Positions 42,495 to 53,854 of a stretch of DNA of 64,000 nt are shown here, piece after piece. Position 1 is the first letter of the stretch. Each line of letters opens with the position of its first letter. A program made the position numbers and the translations under genes. The stretch is from an uncultured Ruminococcus sp. Its GTDB lineage: Bacteria > Bacillota > Clostridia > Oscillospirales > Ruminococcaceae. The notes under the pieces are model-generated. The model was given only the letters and a program-made list of their open reading frames with translations. It did not search any database and was not told where the DNA came from. The stretch lies in contig CASEVP010000014.1 of NCBI GenBank assembly GCA_949291345.1, positions 6,457 to 70,456 of the forward strand, given 5' to 3'.

Positions 42495-43424
42495 CTACTT
42501 TTTCTTATACTTAAATAGTATAATTGTTACCAGCGCTGTCAATGCTACTGCTACAACTGTCGGAAACCATGTATGTTCCGCTCCAGGCAGATCGTACGTA
42601 TTCATTCCATAAAAACTAAATACCATTGTAGGAATTGCCAAAATAATGGTAATCATGGTCAAACGCCACATGACAATATTCAGATTATTGGAGATGACCG
42701 AACCGAACGCCTCTACAACACCAGACAAAATATCGGAGTAAATACTCGCCATTTCTTGAGCCTGTTTCAATTCAATTAACACATCTTCCAACAGATCTTG
42801 GTCTTCCTCATAAAGTTTGACCACACGTCCACGTAAGATTTTATTCATTGTAACATCGTTGGATTTTAACGAAGTAGAAAAGTAAATCAGTGATTTTTCT
42901 AATTCCAGCATTTGAATAAGTTCTTGATTTTTCATCGCACCATGCAATTTCCGCTGCATCACGCTGGATGTCTTATCAATTTGTTTCAAGTATACTAGGA
43001 ATGAAGAAGTAATGTTCATCATCAGACGCAGCACAAACTGTGTGCGAAACTGCGTCTGAATATTGCGAATTCTTCCGCTGACAGCATCGTCAATCACTTT
43101 ATTTTCACGCAAAGATATCGTAAAAACATAGTGATCCGTCAAAATGATACCAAGTGGCATGGTGTAGAAAATCAGCGTATCATCCTTCTGTACTTCTGAC
43201 ACTGCTGTATCTACGATAATAAGCGTTTGATTTTCTTCTTGTTCCACACGTGAGGATTCTTCTTCATCCAGTGAAGATTTCAAAAAATCGCTGTCCAGAC
43301 CATAATCTTCAATTAACATTTTGCGTTCCTGTGCAGTCGGATCCACTACAGATATCCAACATCCAGGCGAAATTGCATCAATTTCAATCAATCGGTTTGC
43401 CACCGTCTTATAGTATGAGATCAA
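42495..43424 (-). CDS. corA: CorA-family magnesium transporter
   Basis: DEEESSR, SNNLN, YGMN signature between two C-terminal TMs; TTG start after AAAGGTGG. Confidence 0.93.
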   Translation of the reverse strand: MISYYKTVANRLIEIDAISPGCWISVVDPTAQERKMLIEDYGLDSDFLKSSLDEEESSRVEQEENQTLIIVDTAVSEVQKDDTLIFYTMPLGIILTDHYVFTISLRENKVIDDAVSGRIRNIQTQFRTQFVLRLMMNITSSFLVYLKQIDKTSSVMQRKLHGAMKNQELIQMLELEKSLIYFSTSLKSNDVTMNKILRGRVVKLYEEDQDLLEDVLIELKQAQEMASIYSDILSGVVEAFGSVISNNLNIVMWRLTMITIILAIPTMVFSFYGMNTYDLPGAEHTWFPTVVAVALTALVTIILFKYKKK

Positions 43425-43467
43425 ATCGGATACCACCTTTCCGCAAAGGCAGACCGAATACGCCGCA

Positions 43468-43551
43468 TCAGCTGCCCTTACAAATTATCCATGTGTTTTT
43501 CCGGTTGCCGTACATTACTTTGCATGGCAAGGGATACGGGTCAGCGTTCAT
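43468..43551 (-). CDS. Putative proline-rich leader peptide of corA (27 aa, MgtL-like)
   Basis: AGGAGGT RBS, ATG, MNADPYPLPCKVMYGNRKNTWIICKGS; lies between the corA promoter and corA. Confidence 0.72.
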   Translation of the reverse strand: MNADPYPLPCKVMYGNRKNTWIICKGS

Positions 43552-43605
43552 GCTGCACCTCCTACTCTATCATACGATTTATTCGGCAAATTTGCCGTTC
43601 ATTTT

Positions 43606-43634
43606 ATTATAACAGAAAAAACCGCCTTTGACAA
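43606..43634 (-). promoter_or_regulatory. Sigma-A promoter for the corA leader and corA
   Basis: TTGTCA-17 nt-TATAAT with TG extension; -35 lies inside the inverted repeat AAAAACCGCC...GGCGGTTTTT (43616-43644, probable upstream terminator). Confidence 0.7.
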
Positions 43635-43852
43635 GGCGGTTTTTGTAAATTCTCCATTTTTTCTTATAAATTTTAAGCGATGCCAAACAAGATTTACACC
43701 TTAAAATGCAGTCAATTTTTTCAACAAATAAAGCAAAGGCAACACAGATACCTTGACATACATCAGGAAAACTTCAAACAATGTAGTAGAAAAAACACAA
43801 GTATATACTTTTCAAAAAAAGATCGAGAGTCTTTACACATACAACGTTGCCT

Positions 43853-44617
43853 TTAATCGGTATCCTTGTGAATTTCTTCTCGCAGTCGTTCTTTGATACC
43901 TTCCAAAATAATATTTTTTGCCTCTATCGCCTGTTCTTTTGTTGCTGGAGGAACACCCTTTAACGGGTAATCAATCCCTAAATTCTCATATTTCACTTCA
44001 CCCATAGTATGATACGGCAAAACGTCCAATGCTTTCAAATTATCTAGGTCTGCTAGGAATCTCCCCAGTTGATGCAAATATTTTTCATTCAGAGTATATC
44101 CGGGTACCACGACATGACGAATCCAGACTGGTATCTTTTTTTCCTTCAGATACATGGCAAATTCTAAAATATGCTGATTGCTATGTTTGGTCAGTTTTAT
44201 ATGCTCTTGTTCATCAATATGTTTGATATCCAGCATAACCAAATCTGTCACTGCCATTAGCCGATCAAACTCTGCTCGCTTCTCCGACCGATACAGTATA
44301 CCAGATGTGTCCAAACAAGTATGGATTTTCTTTTTCTTTGCCGCCTCAAACAGTTCGGTCAAAAATTCCATTTGTACCAGCGGTTCACCACCAGTTGCTG
44401 TGATACCGCCTCCCTGCAAAAATTCTTTCACGCCATCGTATTCATCCAAAATAGATTGCACCGTCCGCAGATTACCATCGCCACCACCAATTGTCCACGT
44501 ATCCGGATTATGACAGTAAAGACAGCGCATAGGACATCCCTGATAAAATATAACAAATCGTATACCGGGTCCGTCTACGGTACCGAAACTCTCTGTCGAA
44601 TGTATATGCCCTTTCAT
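43853..44617 (-). CDS. pflA: Pyruvate formate-lyase activating enzyme
   Basis: ESFGTVDGPG, GCPMRCLYCHNPDTW, TGGEP, LPYHTMG. Confidence 0.97.
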   Translation of the reverse strand: MKGHIHSTESFGTVDGPGIRFVIFYQGCPMRCLYCHNPDTWTIGGGDGNLRTVQSILDEYDGVKEFLQGGGITATGGEPLVQMEFLTELFEAAKKKKIHTCLDTSGILYRSEKRAEFDRLMAVTDLVMLDIKHIDEQEHIKLTKHSNQHILEFAMYLKEKKIPVWIRHVVVPGYTLNEKYLHQLGRFLADLDNLKALDVLPYHTMGEVKYENLGIDYPLKGVPPATKEQAIEAKNIILEGIKERLREEIHKDTD

Positions 44618-44731
44618 CTGCTTACCCTCCTTTTTTCATTTGATATGACAATGGGCGCACAGCATCTGTACGCCGTACGCCCACTGCAATCATTCAGCAA
44701 TTGTTATATTTCACACAATTTATTTTTCCCA

Positions 44732-44971
44732 TCAAAGACCAGCATGGAATGTTCTGGAAATGACATCATCTTGCTGTTCCTTTGTCAGCTTAATAAAGTT
44801 TACCGCATAGCCGCTGACACGAATCGTCAGTTGCGGATACTTTTCCGGATGCTGCTGTGCATCCAGCAATGTTTCACGATTCAAAACATTTACATTCAGA
44901 TGATGACCACCTTTTTCAGCATAGCCGTCCAACAATCCTACCAGATTTTCAATTTGCTTTTCGTTTGCCAT
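44732..44971 (-). CDS. Stand-alone glycyl-radical domain of PFL (79 aa; GrcA/YfiD-like)
   Basis: [18 protein letters not shown]...[16 protein letters not shown]; own strong RBS AAAGGAGG. Confidence 0.93.
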
Positions 44972-45028
44972 GATAAACTCCTCCTTTAAGAATTTACAAC
45001 AATAGCTGCATTTTTGAGCAAAAAAGTT

Positions 45029-45238
45029 TTACTCATCTTCTATAAATTCAGTCGGCTGACAACATGCCATGTTTCCTTTTGAGCAATCCATACTCCGATA
45101 AGTCTTTACACTCATGCCGTCACTCATCAGTTCATCTTCTGAAATGGTCAAATGACCGCTGCCATTTTCCATCAGCTTTTCAATCATATCGACCAATTCA
45201 TCAGACTTATCCTGATCTTTCAGTTCATGTTGTGCCAT
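45029..45238 (-). CDS. Small acidic Cys-containing protein inside the pfl operon (69 aa)
   Basis: AAGGAGG RBS; fills the gap between pflB and the radical-domain gene; N-half resembles the radical-domain N-terminus. Confidence 0.82.
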   Translation of the reverse strand: MAQHELKDQDKSDELVDMIEKLMENGSGHLTISEDELMSDGMSVKTYRSMDCSKGNMACCQPTEFIEDE

Positions 45239-45282
45239 GACACTCCGCCTCCTTCCAAAATTTTAAAACCTTTTGCGTTTGA

Positions 45283-47370
45283 TTATTCTTTTTCCATTGC
45301 TTCACGAATGGAGGCAATATCGATATCACCTGCAAATACAGAAGAATCCTTACCTAAAGCATCCGGAATAATGGTAAATGTATTCGAAATGCCATCCTGT
45401 GCATTCTTCCATGGCAGTTTCGCAACAGACGCCATAGATGCTGCTGCACCGTGTGTATCACGACCATGCATCGGGTTTGCACCAGGAGCCAACGGCTGAC
45501 CCTTCTTACGACCATCCGGTGTGTTACCGGTCTTTTTACCGTATACTACGTTGGAAGTAATAGTCAGGATAGAAGTTGTCGGAACACCGTTTCTATAGCA
45601 ATAATTGCTGCGGATCATATCCATAAACTTATTCAGGATTTCTACTGCAATGCTGTCTACACGGTCATCATTGTTGCCATACTTCGGGAAATCGCCTTCA
45701 ACTTCAAAGTCTACTACTACACCATATTCATCACGAATGCACTTTACCTTTGCATACTTAATTGCAGACAAGGAATCAGCAACAACGGACATACCAGCGA
45801 TACCAGTTGCAAAGTAGCGCTTGACATCTCTATCATGCAGTGCCATTTGCAATGCTTCATAACAATATTTATCGTGCATATAGTGAATGCAGTTGAGCGT
45901 ATCTACATATAGCTTTGCCAGCCATTCCATCATATCGATGTACTTTTCCATTACATCGTCATAATCCAGATAATCGCCTTCTACTTTGCGATACTTTGGA
46001 CCCACCTGATTATGCTTGCCGGTCTTTGCATCGATTCTTTCATCAACACCGCCGTTAATTGCATACAGCAAGCACTTCGCAAGATTTGCACGAGCACCAA
46101 AGAATTGCATTTCCTTACCAACACGCATAGAAGATACACAACAAGCAATCGCATAATCATCGCCGTGTGTCACACGCATCAAGTCATCGTTTTCGTACTG
46201 GAATGAAGAGGTGTTGATAGACAACTTTGCACAATAATGTTTAAACGCTGTCGGCAATCTCTTAGACCACAGTACAGTCAGGTTCGGCTCCGGAGCAGTA
46301 CCTAGGTTTTCCAGTGTATGCAGATAACGGAAACTGGTCTTAGTAACCAGCGTTCTGCCATCGATACCCATACCGCCGATAGATTCAGTTACCCACTGCG
46401 GATCACCGGAGAACAATGCGTTGTATTCAGGTGTTCTAGCAAACTTTACCATACGCAGCTTCATAATAAAGTGGTCAATATATTCCTGTGCCTGTTCTTC
46501 TGTCAAAATGCCATTTTCTAGGTCACGCTGAATATAGATATCCAAGAATGTGGAAGTACGACCGAGGCTCATTGCTGCACCGTTCTGATCCTTTACTGCT
46601 GCAAGATATGCGAAATATGTCCACTGGATTGCTTCCTTCGCATTGGCAGCCGGCTTAGAAATATCATATCCATACTTGGAAGCCATGTTCTTCAAAGCCT
46701 TCAGTGCCTTAATCTGATCTGCCAATTCTTCACGCAAACGGATCTTTTCTTCTGTCATCGTACCACAAACTGTAGACTTCTGATACTCCTTGTCTGCAAT
46801 CAGACGATCTACACCATACAATGCAACACGACGATAATCACCAATAATACGACCACGGCCATACGCATCCGGCAAACCAGTGATAATTGCATTATGACGA
46901 GCAGAACGCATCTCTGGTGTATATACATCAAATACACCCTCGTTGTGTGTCTTTCTATAGTGCTTGAAAATGTAACTAATCTCCGGATCTACTTCATAGC
47001 CATAAGACTTACATGCCTCTTCTGCCATACGGATACCGCCAAACGGCTGCAACGAACGCTTGAGAGGCTTATCTGTCTGCAAACCAACGATCTGCTCCAG
47101 ATCTTTGTGAATATAGCCTGCATCATGTGAATCTACTGTAGATACGATTTTGGTGTCCATATCCAGGACGCCGCCATTTTCACGTTCCTGCTTAAACAGC
47201 TCCATTACTTCGTTCCACAGTGTCTTTGTTGCTTCTGTCGGTCCTGCCAGAAAACTCTCATCGCCCTCATACGGGGTATAGTTCTTCTGAATAAAATCCC
47301 GTACGTCGATCGACTTTTCCCATGCACCGCCGACGAAACCTTCCCATGCGTTTGCCATAGTATCTGCCAT
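45283..47370 (-). CDS. pflB: Pyruvate formate-lyase lacking the C-terminal glycyl-radical domain
   Basis: [23 protein letters not shown], active-site IACCVS, PGANP, DGISNT; stops 20 aa after ALGKD with no RVSGY. Confidence 0.95.
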
Positions 47371-47511
47371 TTTTTTAATCTCCCCTTTGCTGGAAATCCA
47401 GCGGAATTTATATTGGATTTTTTGCAAATCACAGCTGACTTTTAACAGAAAACCGCATCACATTTCTGTCGCTTTTTTTCTTATCTTCCAGCTGTGTTTT
47501 GATCTGTCTTA

Positions 47512-47540
47512 ATAATAACACATCTCAACTAGGATGTCAA
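47512..47540 (-). promoter_or_regulatory. Sigma-A promoter of the pfl operon
   Basis: TTGACA-17 nt-TATTAT with TG extension. Confidence 0.7.
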
Positions 47541-47822
47541 TAGCTTTTACGCAATTTCCCAATATTTTTTTTTACGAAACCTTATTTTTTTATCTGTGTG
47601 TCCAAATTTTGCTTGCCATATTAAAATAAAAACAAGTAAAAATGGCTGTTTATTTTTTTTTATAAAATAATTACCCCGTTTTGCATTGACATCTGACTTC
47701 TCTCATGCTATACTGTTTCTGTTTTTCAAGCATATCACAAAATACAATATATTGTTCTTAATGCAACTTGAAACACATGCATATTGCAACGATATACTAT
47801 TATTATATGGAGAAGATACATT

Positions 47823-48674
47823 ATGATTTTACATCCAAATTCTACTGTTGCCTTAATCGGTTGCTCTAATGGTGTTTCCATAAAAAGTTCAGTACCTGCA
47901 CAGTTAGGGCACACATTTTCCACTTTGCCTTTAAAAACAAAAATATACAGCAGTCTCTACTGCACCACAGATGGTAAAACTGCCGATCCACAATTACGTG
48001 CCGCCCATCTGATGGATGCCTTTCGCACACCGGAAATCAAAGCAATTTTTGACATTACCGGCGGAGATGCCGCCAATGCAATGTTACCTTACCTTGATTT
48101 TTCCGAGATTGCGCAACACCCGAAGCCTTTTTTCGGTTACAGCGACTTATCTGTTCTATTAAATCCACTGCAAGATCTTGCACACATTCCGGTATATTAT
48201 TTTCAAGCACGCTTTTTAATGGATTCCAAAACAATTTACTCGCTATTTCAAAAATGGATATTTCAAGAAGATCCATCTCTTTTGCAATGGAATTATACCT
48301 TTTTGCAAGGAACACATCTAGATGGTGCCATTTGCGGCGGCAACATCCGTTGTACGCTGAAACTTGCCGGTACACCTTGGCAGCCAAATTTTACTGATCG
48401 AATTTTATTTTTGGAAAGTTACTCCGGAAATCTTTCACGCATTGAAACCATGCTGTATCAATATCGGCATATTGGTGCATTTCGTCAATGCAAAGGCATT
48501 CTTCTAGGAAATTTTTCAGAGCTTGCCGCCTTCGGCCAGTTACCAAATCTTTATGCTCTTGTCTTAACAGTTGCAGACAATCCAAAATTGCCCATTATCT
48601 ACACCACACAGCTTGGACACCAGCCAAATGCCAAAATACTTTCATATCAAATAACACATCATTTTTCAATATAA
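47823..48674 (+). CDS. S66 family peptidase (LD-carboxypeptidase/MccF-like)
   Basis: GGD, PKPFFGYSD (Ser), GGN, ILFLES (Glu), GH (His). Confidence 0.88.
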   Translation: MILHPNSTVALIGCSNGVSIKSSVPAQLGHTFSTLPLKTKIYSSLYCTTDGKTADPQLRAAHLMDAFRTPEIKAIFDITGGDAANAMLPYLDFSEIAQHPKPFFGYSDLSVLLNPLQDLAHIPVYYFQARFLMDSKTIYSLFQKWIFQEDPSLLQWNYTFLQGTHLDGAICGGNIRCTLKLAGTPWQPNFTDRILFLESYSGNLSRIETMLYQYRHIGAFRQCKGILLGNFSELAAFGQLPNLYALVLTVADNPKLPIIYTTQLGHQPNAKILSYQITHHFSI

Positions 48675-49985: not shown

Positions 49986-50350
49986 TTCTCCTTTTTTTAT
50001 ACTTCGTTCCGCAGATCTCTATCCATTCTGCTGCAAACACAACTTCTATCAGTATAACACAATTTCAAAAAATGTCAATTCTTTGAAATGGCAACGCGAT
50101 AAACGACGCTTCTTGACAACTTTTTCAATCTCTAGTATACTTAAAGATGGCAACACCACGCAAAAATTGTACACAAATTGCATTACCGTATTTTCTTTCA
50201 GATACAACAAAAACAGAATGCATACTTTGTAGATTCACAAACATTTTTTAGAGTATAATAACTCTGAAACAAAATGTGTACAATGCCATTTGGCAGTATT
50301 CATGGAAAGTTGCCTTACACATATCGTGCATTTTTGCAAAGGAGGATACC

Positions 50351-51433
50351 ATGAAAAAAGCATTGATTGCCATGAGCGGCGGTGTTGACAGTTCTGTTGC
50401 CGCCTTTCTCATGCAGCAAATGGGATACGACTGCATCGGTGTTACCATGAAATTGTTTGAAAAATCACATATTACAGAAATACAAGAAAAAACCTGTGGT
50501 TCTTCCCAAGATGCAGAAGACGCCAGATTGATAGCCAAACGACTTGGTATGCCATTCTATCTGTTCGATTTTACTGATATATTTGAAGAAAAAGTCATAA
50601 AACGGTTTACAAACGCATATGAACATGGCTGGACGCCTAACCCTTGCATCGACTGCAACCGCCATCTGAAATTTGATCAGCTTTTCCTTCGCATGCAGGA
50701 AATGCAGCTAAATACAATCGTTACCGGACACTATGCACAGGTTGTCTATGACGCACCCTCCGGAAGATATTTACTGAAAAAAGGTGCGGATCAAAGCAAA
50801 GATCAGAGCTACGTACTCTATAACCTAAAACAAAATCAATTAGCACATATCCAATTTCCAATAGGAAAATTGCCCAAAACACAAGTACGGAAAATTGCAG
50901 AACAAAACGGATTTGTCAATGCAGCAAAACCAGACAGTCAAGACATTTGCTTTATTCCAGACAATGATTATGCCGGTTTTATTGAACGATACACCGGAAA
51001 AAAATCGGAACCAGGCAATTTTCTTAATACTGCCGGAGAAGTCATCGGCACCCATAAAGGCGTTATTTACTACACCATTGGACAACGCCGGGGACTCGGG
51101 ATTTCTGCGCCGGAGCCACTGTATGTATGCAGTATCTCTCTGAAAGACAACACTGTGACATTGGGCTATCGGGAAGACCTTTATGCGACGGGACTAACAG
51201 CAACAGATGTCAATATGATCTCCTGCGAAACCCTTCCAGAACCAACGGCAGTAGAAGCCAAAATTCGATACCGTCAGCCAGCACAGCCGGCTACAGCATG
51301 GCAGTCAGAAGACGGATGTCTGCATGTAAAGTTTCAACAGCCTCAGCGTGCCATCACATGCGGACAAGCGGTTGTCCTGTACCAAGGCGATACGGTCGTG
51401 GGCGGCGGCACCATTTGCAATGTACATTCCTGA
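50351..51433 (+). CDS. mnmA: tRNA 2-thiouridine(34) synthase
   Basis: AMSGGVDSS, TPNPCIDCN, TGHYA, KDQSY, DSQDICF, TIGQRRG. Confidence 0.97.
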   Translation: MKKALIAMSGGVDSSVAAFLMQQMGYDCIGVTMKLFEKSHITEIQEKTCGSSQDAEDARLIAKRLGMPFYLFDFTDIFEEKVIKRFTNAYEHGWTPNPCIDCNRHLKFDQLFLRMQEMQLNTIVTGHYAQVVYDAPSGRYLLKKGADQSKDQSYVLYNLKQNQLAHIQFPIGKLPKTQVRKIAEQNGFVNAAKPDSQDICFIPDNDYAGFIERYTGKKSEPGNFLNTAGEVIGTHKGVIYYTIGQRRGLGISAPEPLYVCSISLKDNTVTLGYREDLYATGLTATDVNMISCETLPEPTAVEAKIRYRQPAQPATAWQSEDGCLHVKFQQPQRAITCGQAVVLYQGDTVVGGGTICNVHS

Positions 51434-51505: not shown

Positions 51506-53854
51506 ATGACATTAAATGAATTAAAACGTGGAAAATCTGCGTATGTGGTATCAGTGGGCGGTAACGGTGCATTACGGCAGCATTTTCTGGATATGGGCAT
51601 CATTCCTGGTGCTGAAATCACTATGGTAAAACTGGCTCCCATGGGGGATCCCATGGAATTACGAATTCACAGCTATGAACTGACGCTCCGGCTTGCAGAC
51701 GCCGCACAAATTAAAATAGAAAATGTGCATGATGCAAAGGCACCAAAAGGACAAAACATTCGAAAAAAAGTGGTAAACCATCCCGGTTTGGGCGAAGGCG
51801 GTAAATTCCACGTTAAAGCGGATGAACATCCCCTTCCGGAAGGAACAACAATCACATTTGCTCTTGCCGGCAACCAAAACTGTGGAAAAACTACATTGTT
51901 TAACCGCTTAACAGGATCCAATCAACATGTAGGAAATTTCCCCGGCGTAACAGTGGATCGTAAAGACGGGGAAATCCGTGGACATGAAAATACACTAGTA
52001 ACTGACTTGCCTGGAATATACTCTATGTCCCCCTATACCAACGAAGAAATCGTTACACGGCAATTCGTTCTGGAAGAAAAACCAAAAGGCATCATCAACA
52101 TTGCTGATGCCACCAATATTGAACGAAATCTTTATCTAACTATGCAGTTGATGGAACTGGATATTCCTATGGTGCTGGCATTAAACATGATGGACGAAGT
52201 TCGTGAAAACGGCGGTTCAATTCTTGTCAATGAAATGGAGGCACGGCTGGGGATCCCAGTGGTTCCCATCTCTGCCGCAAAAAACGAAGGAATTGATGAA
52301 CTGATTGATCATGCCATTCATGTAGCACAATACCAAGAACGGCCCGGACGCATTGACTTCTGCCGAGAATCGGATGACGGCGGTGCAGTACACCGTTGTC
52401 TCCATGCCATTATGCACACGATAGAAGACCATGCCAAATTTGCCGGCATACCTGTTCGTTTCGCTGCTGCAAAACTGGTCGAGGGAGATACGTTAATCAT
52501 GGAAAAGCTCGACCTTACCCAGAACGAAAAAGAACTGCTTGAACACATTATTGTTCAAATGGAAGAAGAACGCGGTCTGGACCGAGCTGCTGCCATCGCT
52601 GATATGAGATTCAAATTTATTGAAAGCATCTGCAGCGAAACGGTCATTAAACCGCAGGAGAGCAAAGAGCACATACGAAGCACCAGAATTGACAAAATTC
52701 TTACCGGAAAATTCACCGCTATTCCCGGTTTTATTCTAATCATGGCACTGGTATTCTTTCTCACTTTCCATGTCATAGGTGCCGCACTCTCCAGTGTTCT
52801 GGAATGGTTAATTGATTTTGCAACAGATAAAGTAGATGCTCTCCTAACTGCATCGAATGTCAATGATGTGCTCCACGCACTCATTATTGACGGCATTTTT
52901 AATGGTGTAGGCAGCGTTTTAAGCTTTTTACCCACCATTGTCACTCTCTTCTTCTTCCTCTCTCTTTTGGAAGACAGCGGTTATATGGCACGTGTTGCGT
53001 TTGTTATGGACAAACTTCTGCGAAAAATTGGACTTTCTGGTCGCAGCATTGTTCCCATGCTGATTGGTTTCGGATGCACAGTGCCAGGTGTAATGGCAAC
53101 TCGAACACTTCCTTCTGAACGAGACCGCAAAATGACCATTCTCCTGACTCCGTTCATGAGTTGTTCTGCAAAACTGCCGATATACCTCTTCTTTACTGCG
53201 GCATTCTTTCCCAAATGGGGTGGACTTGTTATGGTCATTCTCTATTTTGGGGGTATATTATTGGGAATTCTTACTGCTCTTCTCATGAAAAACACACTTT
53301 TTAAAGGAAATGCGGTTCCCTTTGTCATGGAACTACCAAACTATCGTATGCCAAGTTTAAAAAATGTGGGGCAACTGCTGTGGGAAAAAGCAAAGGATTT
53401 CTTACAACGTGCCTTTACTGTAATATTTATTGGCACAATCGTTATCTGGTTCCTACAAACCTTTGATTCACACTTGAACGTTGTATCTGATTCACAAAAC
53501 AGTCTACTCGCCTCTGTCGCTGGCATCGTTGCACCGATTTTTCAGCCACTTGGATTTGGCGACTGGCGAATCTCTACCGCTCTTATCTCTGGTTTTATCG
53601 CTAAAGAAAGCGTGGTTTCTACACTCTCTGTCTTATTTGGATCTACTTCCAGTTTGATGGAAGTACTCACGCCGCTCGCCGCTGTCTCTCTTCTGGTCTT
53701 CTGCCTGCTGTATACCCCATGCGTTGCCGCTATTGCCGCCATACGCCGGGAACTTGGCAGCAAATGGGCTATTTTTGTTGTAGTCATGCAATGCGTCATC
53801 GCCTGGGTGGCTGCATCTGTTGTGCATCTGATCGGACTTCTTATTGTGGGGTGA
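51506..53854 (+). CDS. feoB: Ferrous iron transporter, FeoA-FeoB fusion
   Basis: N-terminal FeoA (DMGIIPG, APMGDP), GNQNCGKT, GNFPGVTV, DLPG, NMMD, LEDSGY, PFMSCSAKL. Confidence 0.96.
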   Translation: MTLNELKRGKSAYVVSVGGNGALRQHFLDMGIIPGAEITMVKLAPMGDPMELRIHSYELTLRLADAAQIKIENVHDAKAPKGQNIRKKVVNHPGLGEGGKFHVKADEHPLPEGTTITFALAGNQNCGKTTLFNRLTGSNQHVGNFPGVTVDRKDGEIRGHENTLVTDLPGIYSMSPYTNEEIVTRQFVLEEKPKGIINIADATNIERNLYLTMQLMELDIPMVLALNMMDEVRENGGSILVNEMEARLGIPVVPISAAKNEGIDELIDHAIHVAQYQERPGRIDFCRESDDGGAVHRCLHAIMHTIEDHAKFAGIPVRFAAAKLVEGDTLIMEKLDLTQNEKELLEHIIVQMEEERGLDRAAAIADMRFKFIESICSETVIKPQESKEHIRSTRIDKILTGKFTAIPGFILIMALVFFLTFHVIGAALSSVLEWLIDFATDKVDALLTASNVNDVLHALIIDGIFNGVGSVLSFLPTIVTLFFFLSLLEDSGYMARVAFVMDKLLRKIGLSGRSIVPMLIGFGCTVPGVMATRTLPSERDRKMTILLTPFMSCSAKLPIYLFFTAAFFPKWGGLVMVILYFGGILLGILTALLMKNTLFKGNAVPFVMELPNYRMPSLKNVGQLLWEKAKDFLQRAFTVIFIGTIVIWFLQTFDSHLNVVSDSQNSLLASVAGIVAPIFQPLGFGDWRISTALISGFIAKESVVSTLSVLFGSTSSLMEVLTPLAAVSLLVFCLLYTPCVAAIAAIRRELGSKWAIFVVVMQCVIAWVAASVVHLIGLLIVG

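Follow-up and report, generated by a model that had tools for sequence, protein, structure and literature searches.

[quoted passage not shown] The canonical enzyme is a single chain that O2 cleaves at its radical Gly, and E. coli repairs it with the spare-part protein YfiD/GrcA. The closest described systems, E. coli PflB with GrcA/YfiD (2PFL/1H16, 6OWR) and phage T4 Y06I, share with the locus described here the same barrel, the Cys-Cys loop and activation by PflA. A two-chain enzyme has also been engineered: in the accessible parts of Andorfer et al. 2021 (PMC8683613), E. coli tPFL(1-695) with truncated YfiD reaches the wild-type turnover rate once activated, binding of the two is too weak for ITC and activation is 32-fold less. 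The same parts of that paper give PFL residues 696-733 as a recognition element and name exchangeable radical modules for other glycyl radical enzymes as an engineering aim. A 2026 review of glycyl radical enzymes (GREs; PMC13450708), in the sections available, treats YfiD as a spare part; the small subunits that it lists belong to HPAD, BSS and MASS only, with BSSβ and MASSδ touching the glycyl radical domain (GRD; section 4.2). A natural split PFL is not mentioned in the available parts of PMC13450708, PMC12288474, PMC9403272 and PMC4300822, and full-text searching, with most subscription papers outside its reach, found no paper describing one.

We analysed a window of 64,000 nucleotides of DNA from an uncultured Ruminococcus sp., in which the original prediction had placed a naturally split PFL. 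We consider it probable that the locus is an intact operon in which PFL is made as two chains, a truncated body (PflB*) and a small glycyl-radical subunit (GrcA3), which likely share one active site, and in which a third gene probably encodes an accessory radical-free stand-in.

Anatomy of the split enzyme

The operon has four genes, all on the minus strand: pflB, a 69-aa ORF (the middle gene), a 79-aa ORF (grcA3) and pflA, each behind a ribosome-binding site (RBS) of the AGGAG/GGGGAG type (Table 1). The part missing from PflB had been assigned to a 79-aa gene about 310 nt downstream with its own RBS and pflA behind it, and this was confirmed: grcA3 starts 311 nt past the pflB stop in a different frame, and the two downstream genes match GrcA3 and TIGR02493. 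The other gene said to lie between them is the 69-aa ORF.

Table 1. Coordinates of the features of the split PFL operon within the window
Feature	Coordinates	Strand	Basis or remark
Sigma-70-like promoter	47512..47540	-	TTGACA, 17 bp, TG-extended TATTAT, 11/12 matches; consensus match only
pflB* (695-aa PFL body without β10 and glycyl loop; E. coli 1-676 plus tail)	45283..47370	-	TIGR01255 match
Active-site Cys410-Cys411 codons (E. coli C418/C419)	46138..46143	-	sequence
21-residue acidic PflB* tail with F-x-G-D motif	45286..45348	-	diagnostic of tailed split PFLs
Middle gene, 69 aa: radical-free GrcA3 helix/β10 paralog (residues 8-35), then D-C-x6-A-C-x2-P-T	45029..45238	-	
grcA3, 79-aa glycyl-radical subunit: helix, β10, Gly loop, C-terminal helix	44732..44971	-	NF038360 match
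Strong RNA hairpin, grcA3-pflA interval	44641..44692	-	z -4.4 vs shuffles
pflA, PFL-activating radical SAM enzyme, 254 aa	43853..44617	-	TIGR02493 294.7 vs cut-off 231.75
Intrinsic-terminator-like hairpin 3' of pflA	43617..43644	-	consensus only

An RNA-library contig from an independent run covers 44678-47489, and with it pflB, the middle gene and grcA3, with 8 substitutions and no gaps. It independently confirms the DNA sequence, as contig-level evidence and not as proof of transcription. RNA-library contigs from two studies start at 47489 and 47479, near the putative promoter (a weak hint), and one contig stops at 44678, inside the hairpin between grcA3 and pflA. A similar stem was present in 19/19 genus loci folded, and the hairpin likely attenuates pflA or stabilises the upstream mRNA. 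Rfam gave no match at E 0.1 within 43400-47800.

PflB had been predicted to keep the active-site ACC yet to end early, and it does both. Cys410/Cys411 in the ACC loop are intact, the pair being invariant across 33 aligned split PflB, and the 695-aa protein spans positions 1-665 of the 744 of TIGR01255, scoring 1114.6 bits (cut-off 994.2) and closing with ALGK, a 21-residue acidic tail and TAA. An AlphaFold model of PflB* alone has the PFL barrel fold (TM 0.93 against 2PFL); it is unconfident at 628-641 and 660-683, adjoining the missing strand, a weak sign with only 33 sequences aligned. PflB* is a PFL by its TIGR01255 score, barrel fold, Cys-Cys loop and an adjoining PflA above the TIGR02493 cut-off, and it lacks the glycyl radical domain in the same chain as the barrel, the remainder being a separate gene. 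In alignment to E. coli PFL its core ends at K676, and the Pfam Gly_radical model is divided, with positions 2-49 on PflB* and 50-106 on GrcA3. By these alignments the cut falls inside the barrel and the small gene takes strand β10, leaving no clean domain boundary; the proposal of a split exactly at the domain boundary does not stand.

GrcA3 belongs to an already named NCBIfam family (NF038360, 165.9 bits, cut-off 158). It covers TIGR01255 positions 663-742 and corresponds approximately to E. coli PFL 676-759, comprising helix 681-694, barrel strand β10, the Gly loop and the last helix. HLNVNV and RVSGY are both present, Gly54 is equivalent to E. coli G734, and the GRD fingerprint RVxG[FWY]x6-8[FL]x4Qx2[IV]x2R (PMC13450708) is complete in residues 51-73. 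The protein is free-standing, as is the ~78-aa family, with its own RBS and start. It is rare across the phylum, with 4/401 genomes over the cut-off, its own included. The extra helix predicted ahead of the YfiD-like segment was found as well: GrcA/YfiD matches begin at residue 18-20, and the GrcA/YfiD model TIGR04365 matches only from residue 19, at 97.6 bits, under its cut-off of 170.

E. coli YfiD, like GrcA3, is a free small protein bearing β10 and the Gly loop, and by analogy the split PFL is best read as working like PflB plus YfiD, an arrangement whose feasibility the tPFL-YfiD precedent supports. E. coli PFL is made whole and YfiD repairs it, whereas here no whole PFL was found. The system would therefore not be a GrcA spare part, and GrcA3 would be obligate, since no whole PFL to repair was found in its own assembly (80% complete) or in the single-contig genome G002 of the genus. 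YfiD (~127 aa) has a disordered 60-residue N-half; GrcA3 lacks that half and has PFL helix 681-694 instead. Given the weak tPFL-YfiD binding and the 32-fold lower activation in E. coli, the split enzyme would need a better interface, for which the extra GrcA3 helix is only a plausible source. A radical-free third paralog is present here, unlike in the E. coli PflB/YfiD system. The NCBIfam label for NF038360 says autonomous cofactor, and NCBI gives the Collinsella ortholog the name GrcA3.

The two best PDB matches of PflB* are 38LA (687 aa) and 38LB (739 aa), both called formate acetyltransferase. 38LA stops one residue past LGKE, as tail-less split PFLs do, and 38LB runs on into an F-G-E/D, Cys-bearing tail, as tailed split PFLs do; both chains are without the Gly domain, GrcA3 queries match neither, and the PDB file contains no GrcA3 or middle-protein chain. 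Literature searches on the two entries turned up unrelated papers only. From where the two chains stop, we infer that their ends are natural and that they were studied as split enzymes. They are probably newer entries, since they are absent from a fold library ending 2026-04-08, and they suggest that others are already at work on truncated bodies. Novelty is limited accordingly, with GrcA3 already named by NCBI and two PFLs in the PDB ending at the same points.

An Actinomycetota locus of the GrcA2 type (NF008341; L263), the one locus over that cut-off in 301 genomes, likewise has a split PFL with the small radical gene directly behind. Its cut comes after the helix, near E. coli 695, and its small protein has its own N-terminal extension; it is probably an independent split.

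Spread and history of the split

The survey suggested with the original prediction, for PFLs without a Gly_radical domain beside a stand-alone Gly_radical gene, found the arrangement in 22 of 24 genus genomes and in 11 other families. All 22 have a full 79-aa match in a short frame together with truncated pflB and the middle gene; the two exceptions are a fragment at a contig start and a 76%-complete genome without a match. Each genus genome has a single match except G007, whose second match is its middle gene, and no second PFL C-terminus was found in any of the 24, including the 99%-complete G002. In the assembly of origin (123 contigs), tblastn and a PF02901 search found no second PFL-like gene. 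The check proposed with the prediction, for a full-length pflB elsewhere in the genome, came out negative in this 80%-complete assembly and in G002.

In a class sample of 400 genomes, 242 had a match. Among the 150 matches listed (118 were not listed), at least 19 are split loci, from 11 other families and each the sole match in its genome, and the majority are fused. Scanning GTDB for the tail motif gave 120 loci, and the stored stretches that carry it are estimated at ~3000; the pattern was derived from split tails, so it gauges how widely they are spread and not what proportion they make up. Fused genes are absent from the 120, of which 55 have the three-gene layout, 17 have a PflB tail bearing the Cys motif and 48 belong to the C. 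aerofaciens type with neither. grcA3 is visible in 96, the remaining 24 being mostly short or contig-end loci, and named hosts include Ruminococcus albus, C. aerofaciens (Collinsella) and Lachnospiraceae.

Long Gly_radical frames in five genomes, including C. aerofaciens and R. albus, were considered as second PFLs and rejected as NrdD-like; the long matches in G439, G440 and G442 gave no alignment to PflB* (E 0.3-0.4) and have NrdD-like ends. One class-sample match (G157) is a fused gene interrupted by a contig end, and another locus (G243) sits at a contig edge.

Against 13 genus relatives, omega was 0.030-0.064 for the pflB* body, 0.009-0.044 for grcA3 and 0.030-0.256 for the middle gene (8 unsaturated pairs). 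The split is conserved and under purifying selection, with no gene decay.

GrcA3 also occurs away from pflB. A viral scan gave 36 loci, 22 matching from the helix and the other 14 of the Y06I/GrcA type. Of the 22, 17 are short genes standing alone, the flank examined showing no pflB (on the upstream side it is short in two); a tail-less split pflB adjoins another 3, and in the last 2 the PFL is fused. Three of 16 viral proteins pass the GrcA3 cut-off and the other 13 score 151-158, just below. Two near-identical viral loci (L325, L332) have the reversed order, with grcA3 upstream of pflB*, the L325 pflB* being 675 aa if TGA is read as Trp. One genome, G442, has a second, orphan chromosomal grcA3. 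The 17 viral loci and the orphan copy suggest that an extra GrcA3 subunit is worth carrying, and together with the two reversed loci they speak for action of GrcA3 in trans.

We built a PflB-body tree of 70 rows (quick LG+G4, midpoint root) after ~35 near-duplicates had been removed by hand and 9 rows had failed the start-motif filter; Collinsella is represented by only 2 rows. All 45 split rows fall within one 49-row group (SH-aLRT 99) that also has 4 fused rows, and the fused L200/L202 are nested deep among split rows, behind three branches with SH-aLRT 96-99. Layouts were set before the tree, and AU tests were picked after it was inspected; they reject the monophyly of all split rows (p 1.2e-8), of tailed rows to the exclusion of L200/L202 (p 0.0066) and of Cys-tail rows (p 2.8e-12). 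On the simplest reading, the gene was split once, long ago, was probably re-fused in some lineages, and the Cys motif became attached to the PflB tail more than once. With fused genes lying within the split clade, the claim that the arrangement is permanent fails on an evolutionary timescale.

By the same nesting the split can be undone and is perhaps close to neutral. The split enzyme might work without any oxygen benefit as a tolerated fission, with the middle gene a duplication remnant and a stability patch only. We regard this as possible, if somewhat unlikely. L200/L202 and the rejected monophyly speak for it, as do the several coexisting junction layouts and the fused majority of the PFL matches listed in the class sample. 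It sits less easily with the stand-alone GrcA3 of 17 viral loci and the orphan chromosomal copy, with the second, differently placed split at L263, and with a Cys motif that survives repeated rearrangements.

The middle gene

Neither Pfam nor NCBIfam has a family for the middle protein, which is 'hypothetical' in every source name found. Searched against PDB sequences it gave no match below E 0.25 and no similarity to solved small subunits. The ESM Atlas returned unnamed Bacillota clusters only, and a weak match to Pfam PFL-like (E 0.077, model 381-435), present in 2 of 38 family members, was treated as chance. Its homology is to the start of GrcA3: residues 8-35 align with GrcA3 residues 3-30 (hhalign 94%, E 1.5e-7), and NF038360 is matched by 17 of the 38 members (best E 1.2e-4). 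The middle-gene profile matches in 40 of 42 genus genomes and has a weaker second match in 25, which is the grcA3 start wherever coordinates could be compared. The family forms 323 clusters at 50% identity.

Conservation was scored in the 138 representatives of 55-100 aa among 146 new ones. D20 is conserved in 97%, G28 in 92%, H29 in 87%, N31 in 81%, C52 in 88%, C59 in 96% and P62 in 98%, and the Gly motif is absent from all 138. D20, H29 and N31 correspond to GrcA3 D15, H24 and N26, which are invariant in GrcA3 and have equivalents in 37 of 38 fused PFLs; the second Asn of GrcA3 β10 (N28), invariant there, is not retained. An AlphaFold model of the middle protein alone (pLDDT 59) has a helix at 8-25 and a strand at 27-31, both at low confidence. 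Since the polar residues are kept without the radical loop, docking in the same β10 slot would best explain them. Judged from its alignments, the middle gene is part of the system, a conserved radical-free paralog of the GrcA3 N-half, and its product is probably a placeholder or helper for GrcA3. Both the gene and the Cys motif are absent from the 48 C. aerofaciens-type loci among the 120 with a tail motif and from 4 tail-less loci; because these split loci do without it, the middle gene would be accessory. In one locus (L070) the middle gene is fused to an unrelated frame and there is no grcA3, and the contig may be chimeric. No middle gene was found by tblastn inside the 36 viral GrcA3 loci.

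The Cys-bearing half of the protein recalls other GRE systems. The small subunits of BSS, HPAD and MASS, like the middle protein, are small and Cys-bearing, and some contact the GRD (PMC13450708, available sections). They are HiPIP- or rubredoxin-like with four ligands, whereas the middle protein is derived from the GRD flank and has two conserved Cys and no four-ligand Cys motif, 65 of the 138 representatives having just two Cys. It might accordingly be a regulator and not a chaperone, a competitive decoy or a thiol/metal module that turns PFL off, either by pushing GrcA3 out or by quenching the radical, much like the BSS and MASS small subunits that touch the GRD; we hold this to be doubtful but worth weighing. 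A docking motif without a Gly loop and the high conservation of C52 and C59 fit such a role, as does the contact of BSSβ and MASSδ with the GRD in the accessible review text. At least three separate lineages, moreover, have the Cys motif as part of the PflB* C-terminus, so it probably acts near that spot; other lineages lack it. Against a regulator, two conserved Cys would not make up a four-Cys metal site within one monomer, the solved small subunits show no similarity, and a place in the same operon with a strong RBS of its own would suit a constitutive partner equally.

Proposed mechanism and significance

We propose that the helix and strand of GrcA3 dock into the open β10 slot of PflB*, that PflA would place the radical on Gly54, and that catalysis would proceed via Cys410/Cys411, as in E. 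coli. Oxygen would cut only the 9-kDa GrcA3, and fresh GrcA3 would take its place. The middle protein, with docking residues D20, G28, H29 and N31 kept and no Gly loop, would most likely fill the β10 slot when no intact GrcA3 is bound, so that the barrel stays folded or GrcA3 is exchanged more easily. The least certain step concerns its two cysteines, which may form a redox element or a metal-dependent one. In a fuller and more speculative version, which we offer tentatively, GrcA3 would be, across a large lineage of gut anaerobes, an obligate swappable radical subunit with a dedicated radical-free mimic plugging the β10 slot, the Cys pair would time the exchange, and phages would stock the radical subunit, keeping host fermentation running.

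Taken together, the two pieces run in the same order as an ordinary PflB, and a full-length protein could in principle be restored by recoding or splicing over the 311-nt gap. This is very improbable: the distance from the pflB stop to the grcA3 stop ranges over ~226-722 nt among relatives, the gap encodes a selected protein, Rfam has no match, no joint was seen here in four runs (contigs only), and L325/L332 have the gene order reversed. That pflB is decaying or mis-assembled, with the 79-aa ORF as its orphaned end and the gene intact in close relatives, can be dismissed even for an 80%-complete genome in 123 contigs: 22 genus genomes share the split, as do isolates, R. albus and C. aerofaciens among them, omega for pflB* is at most 0.064, and the independent contig runs over all three genes without gaps.

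For the two-chain PFL, the natural split is a ready test of GRD movement and activation and of what makes a spare part bind, and exchangeable radical modules for other glycyl radical enzymes could be modelled on it. It also matters for annotation, as screens demanding a C-terminal Gly motif would miscall split PFLs as broken (~3000 GTDB stretches, an estimate). An accessory protein for PFL would be new, given that the available sections of the review (PMC13450708) list small subunits only for HPAD, BSS and MASS. If the proposal is true, the radical-free mimic would be the first PFL accessory subunit and a natural 'dummy cartridge' for a glycyl radical enzyme.

Truncated and full-length pyruvate formate-lyases

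Two PDB entries named formate acetyltransferase, 38LA (687 aa) and 38LB (739 aa), comprise chains missing the glycyl radical domain, and their C-terminal ends resemble those of the natural split pyruvate formate-lyases (PFLs). A literature search found no publication linked to either entry. A second cut layout occurs at a locus of GrcA2, another small radical-protein family (L263, G663:C4:259386-262622), where the PFL is cut past the helix, near E. coli residue 695, similar in position to the engineered E. coli tPFL, and the small radical gene lies immediately 3' of it. This split is probably a natural, independent event. Full-length PFLs from two genomes (L200 in G307 and L202 in G329) were placed inside the clade of split sequences, and their C-termini share 82% identity with GrcA3, the separate glycyl-radical subunit; they are likely re-fusion products.

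Variation among cellular split loci

In Collinsella-related Actinomycetota genomes (L268-L277), several of the PFL bodies (PflB*) keep a short Cys-x2-Cys-type tail, whereas the C. aerofaciens-type PflB* has lost it. Genome G442 carries a second, orphan grcA3 distant from pflB (L259:3034-3307), downstream of a gene that, judged by eye, we take to resemble a Crp/Fnr-type regulator. At L070, the middle gene, a radical-free GrcA3 paralog, is joined to unrelated sequence in the same reading frame, and grcA3 is absent from the locus; this contig is possibly chimeric.

GrcA3-type genes on viral contigs

GrcA3-type genes also occur on IMG/VR viral contigs (L311-L332), 17 of which have no pflB in the available flank. 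Two contigs (L325:2995-5267 and L332) show reversed gene order, with grcA3 preceding split pflB; the L325 pflB is interrupted by three TGA codons that table 4 translation reads through, yielding 675 aa. In L315 and L319, nrdD-like and nrdG-like genes flank the GrcA3-type gene. Viral contigs of ~93 kb (L329:930-3231 and L330) carry a fused, full-length PFL.

Surroundings of the split locus

Features within and neighbouring the split pflB locus in the window
Feature	Position	Strand	Remark
CorA transporter gene	42495-43436	(-)	family scan; ordinary neighbour
Hairpin, grcA3-pflA intergenic	44641-44692	(-)	kept across genus, sequence varies
S66 LD-carboxypeptidase gene	47784-48674	(+)	family scan; ordinary neighbour
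MnmA-like gene (presumed)	50276-51433	(+)	sequence motifs; ordinary neighbour
FeoA-FeoB fusion (presumed)	51506-53854	(+)	sequence motifs; ordinary neighbour

The hairpin preceding the activase gene pflA may set a low level of PflA.
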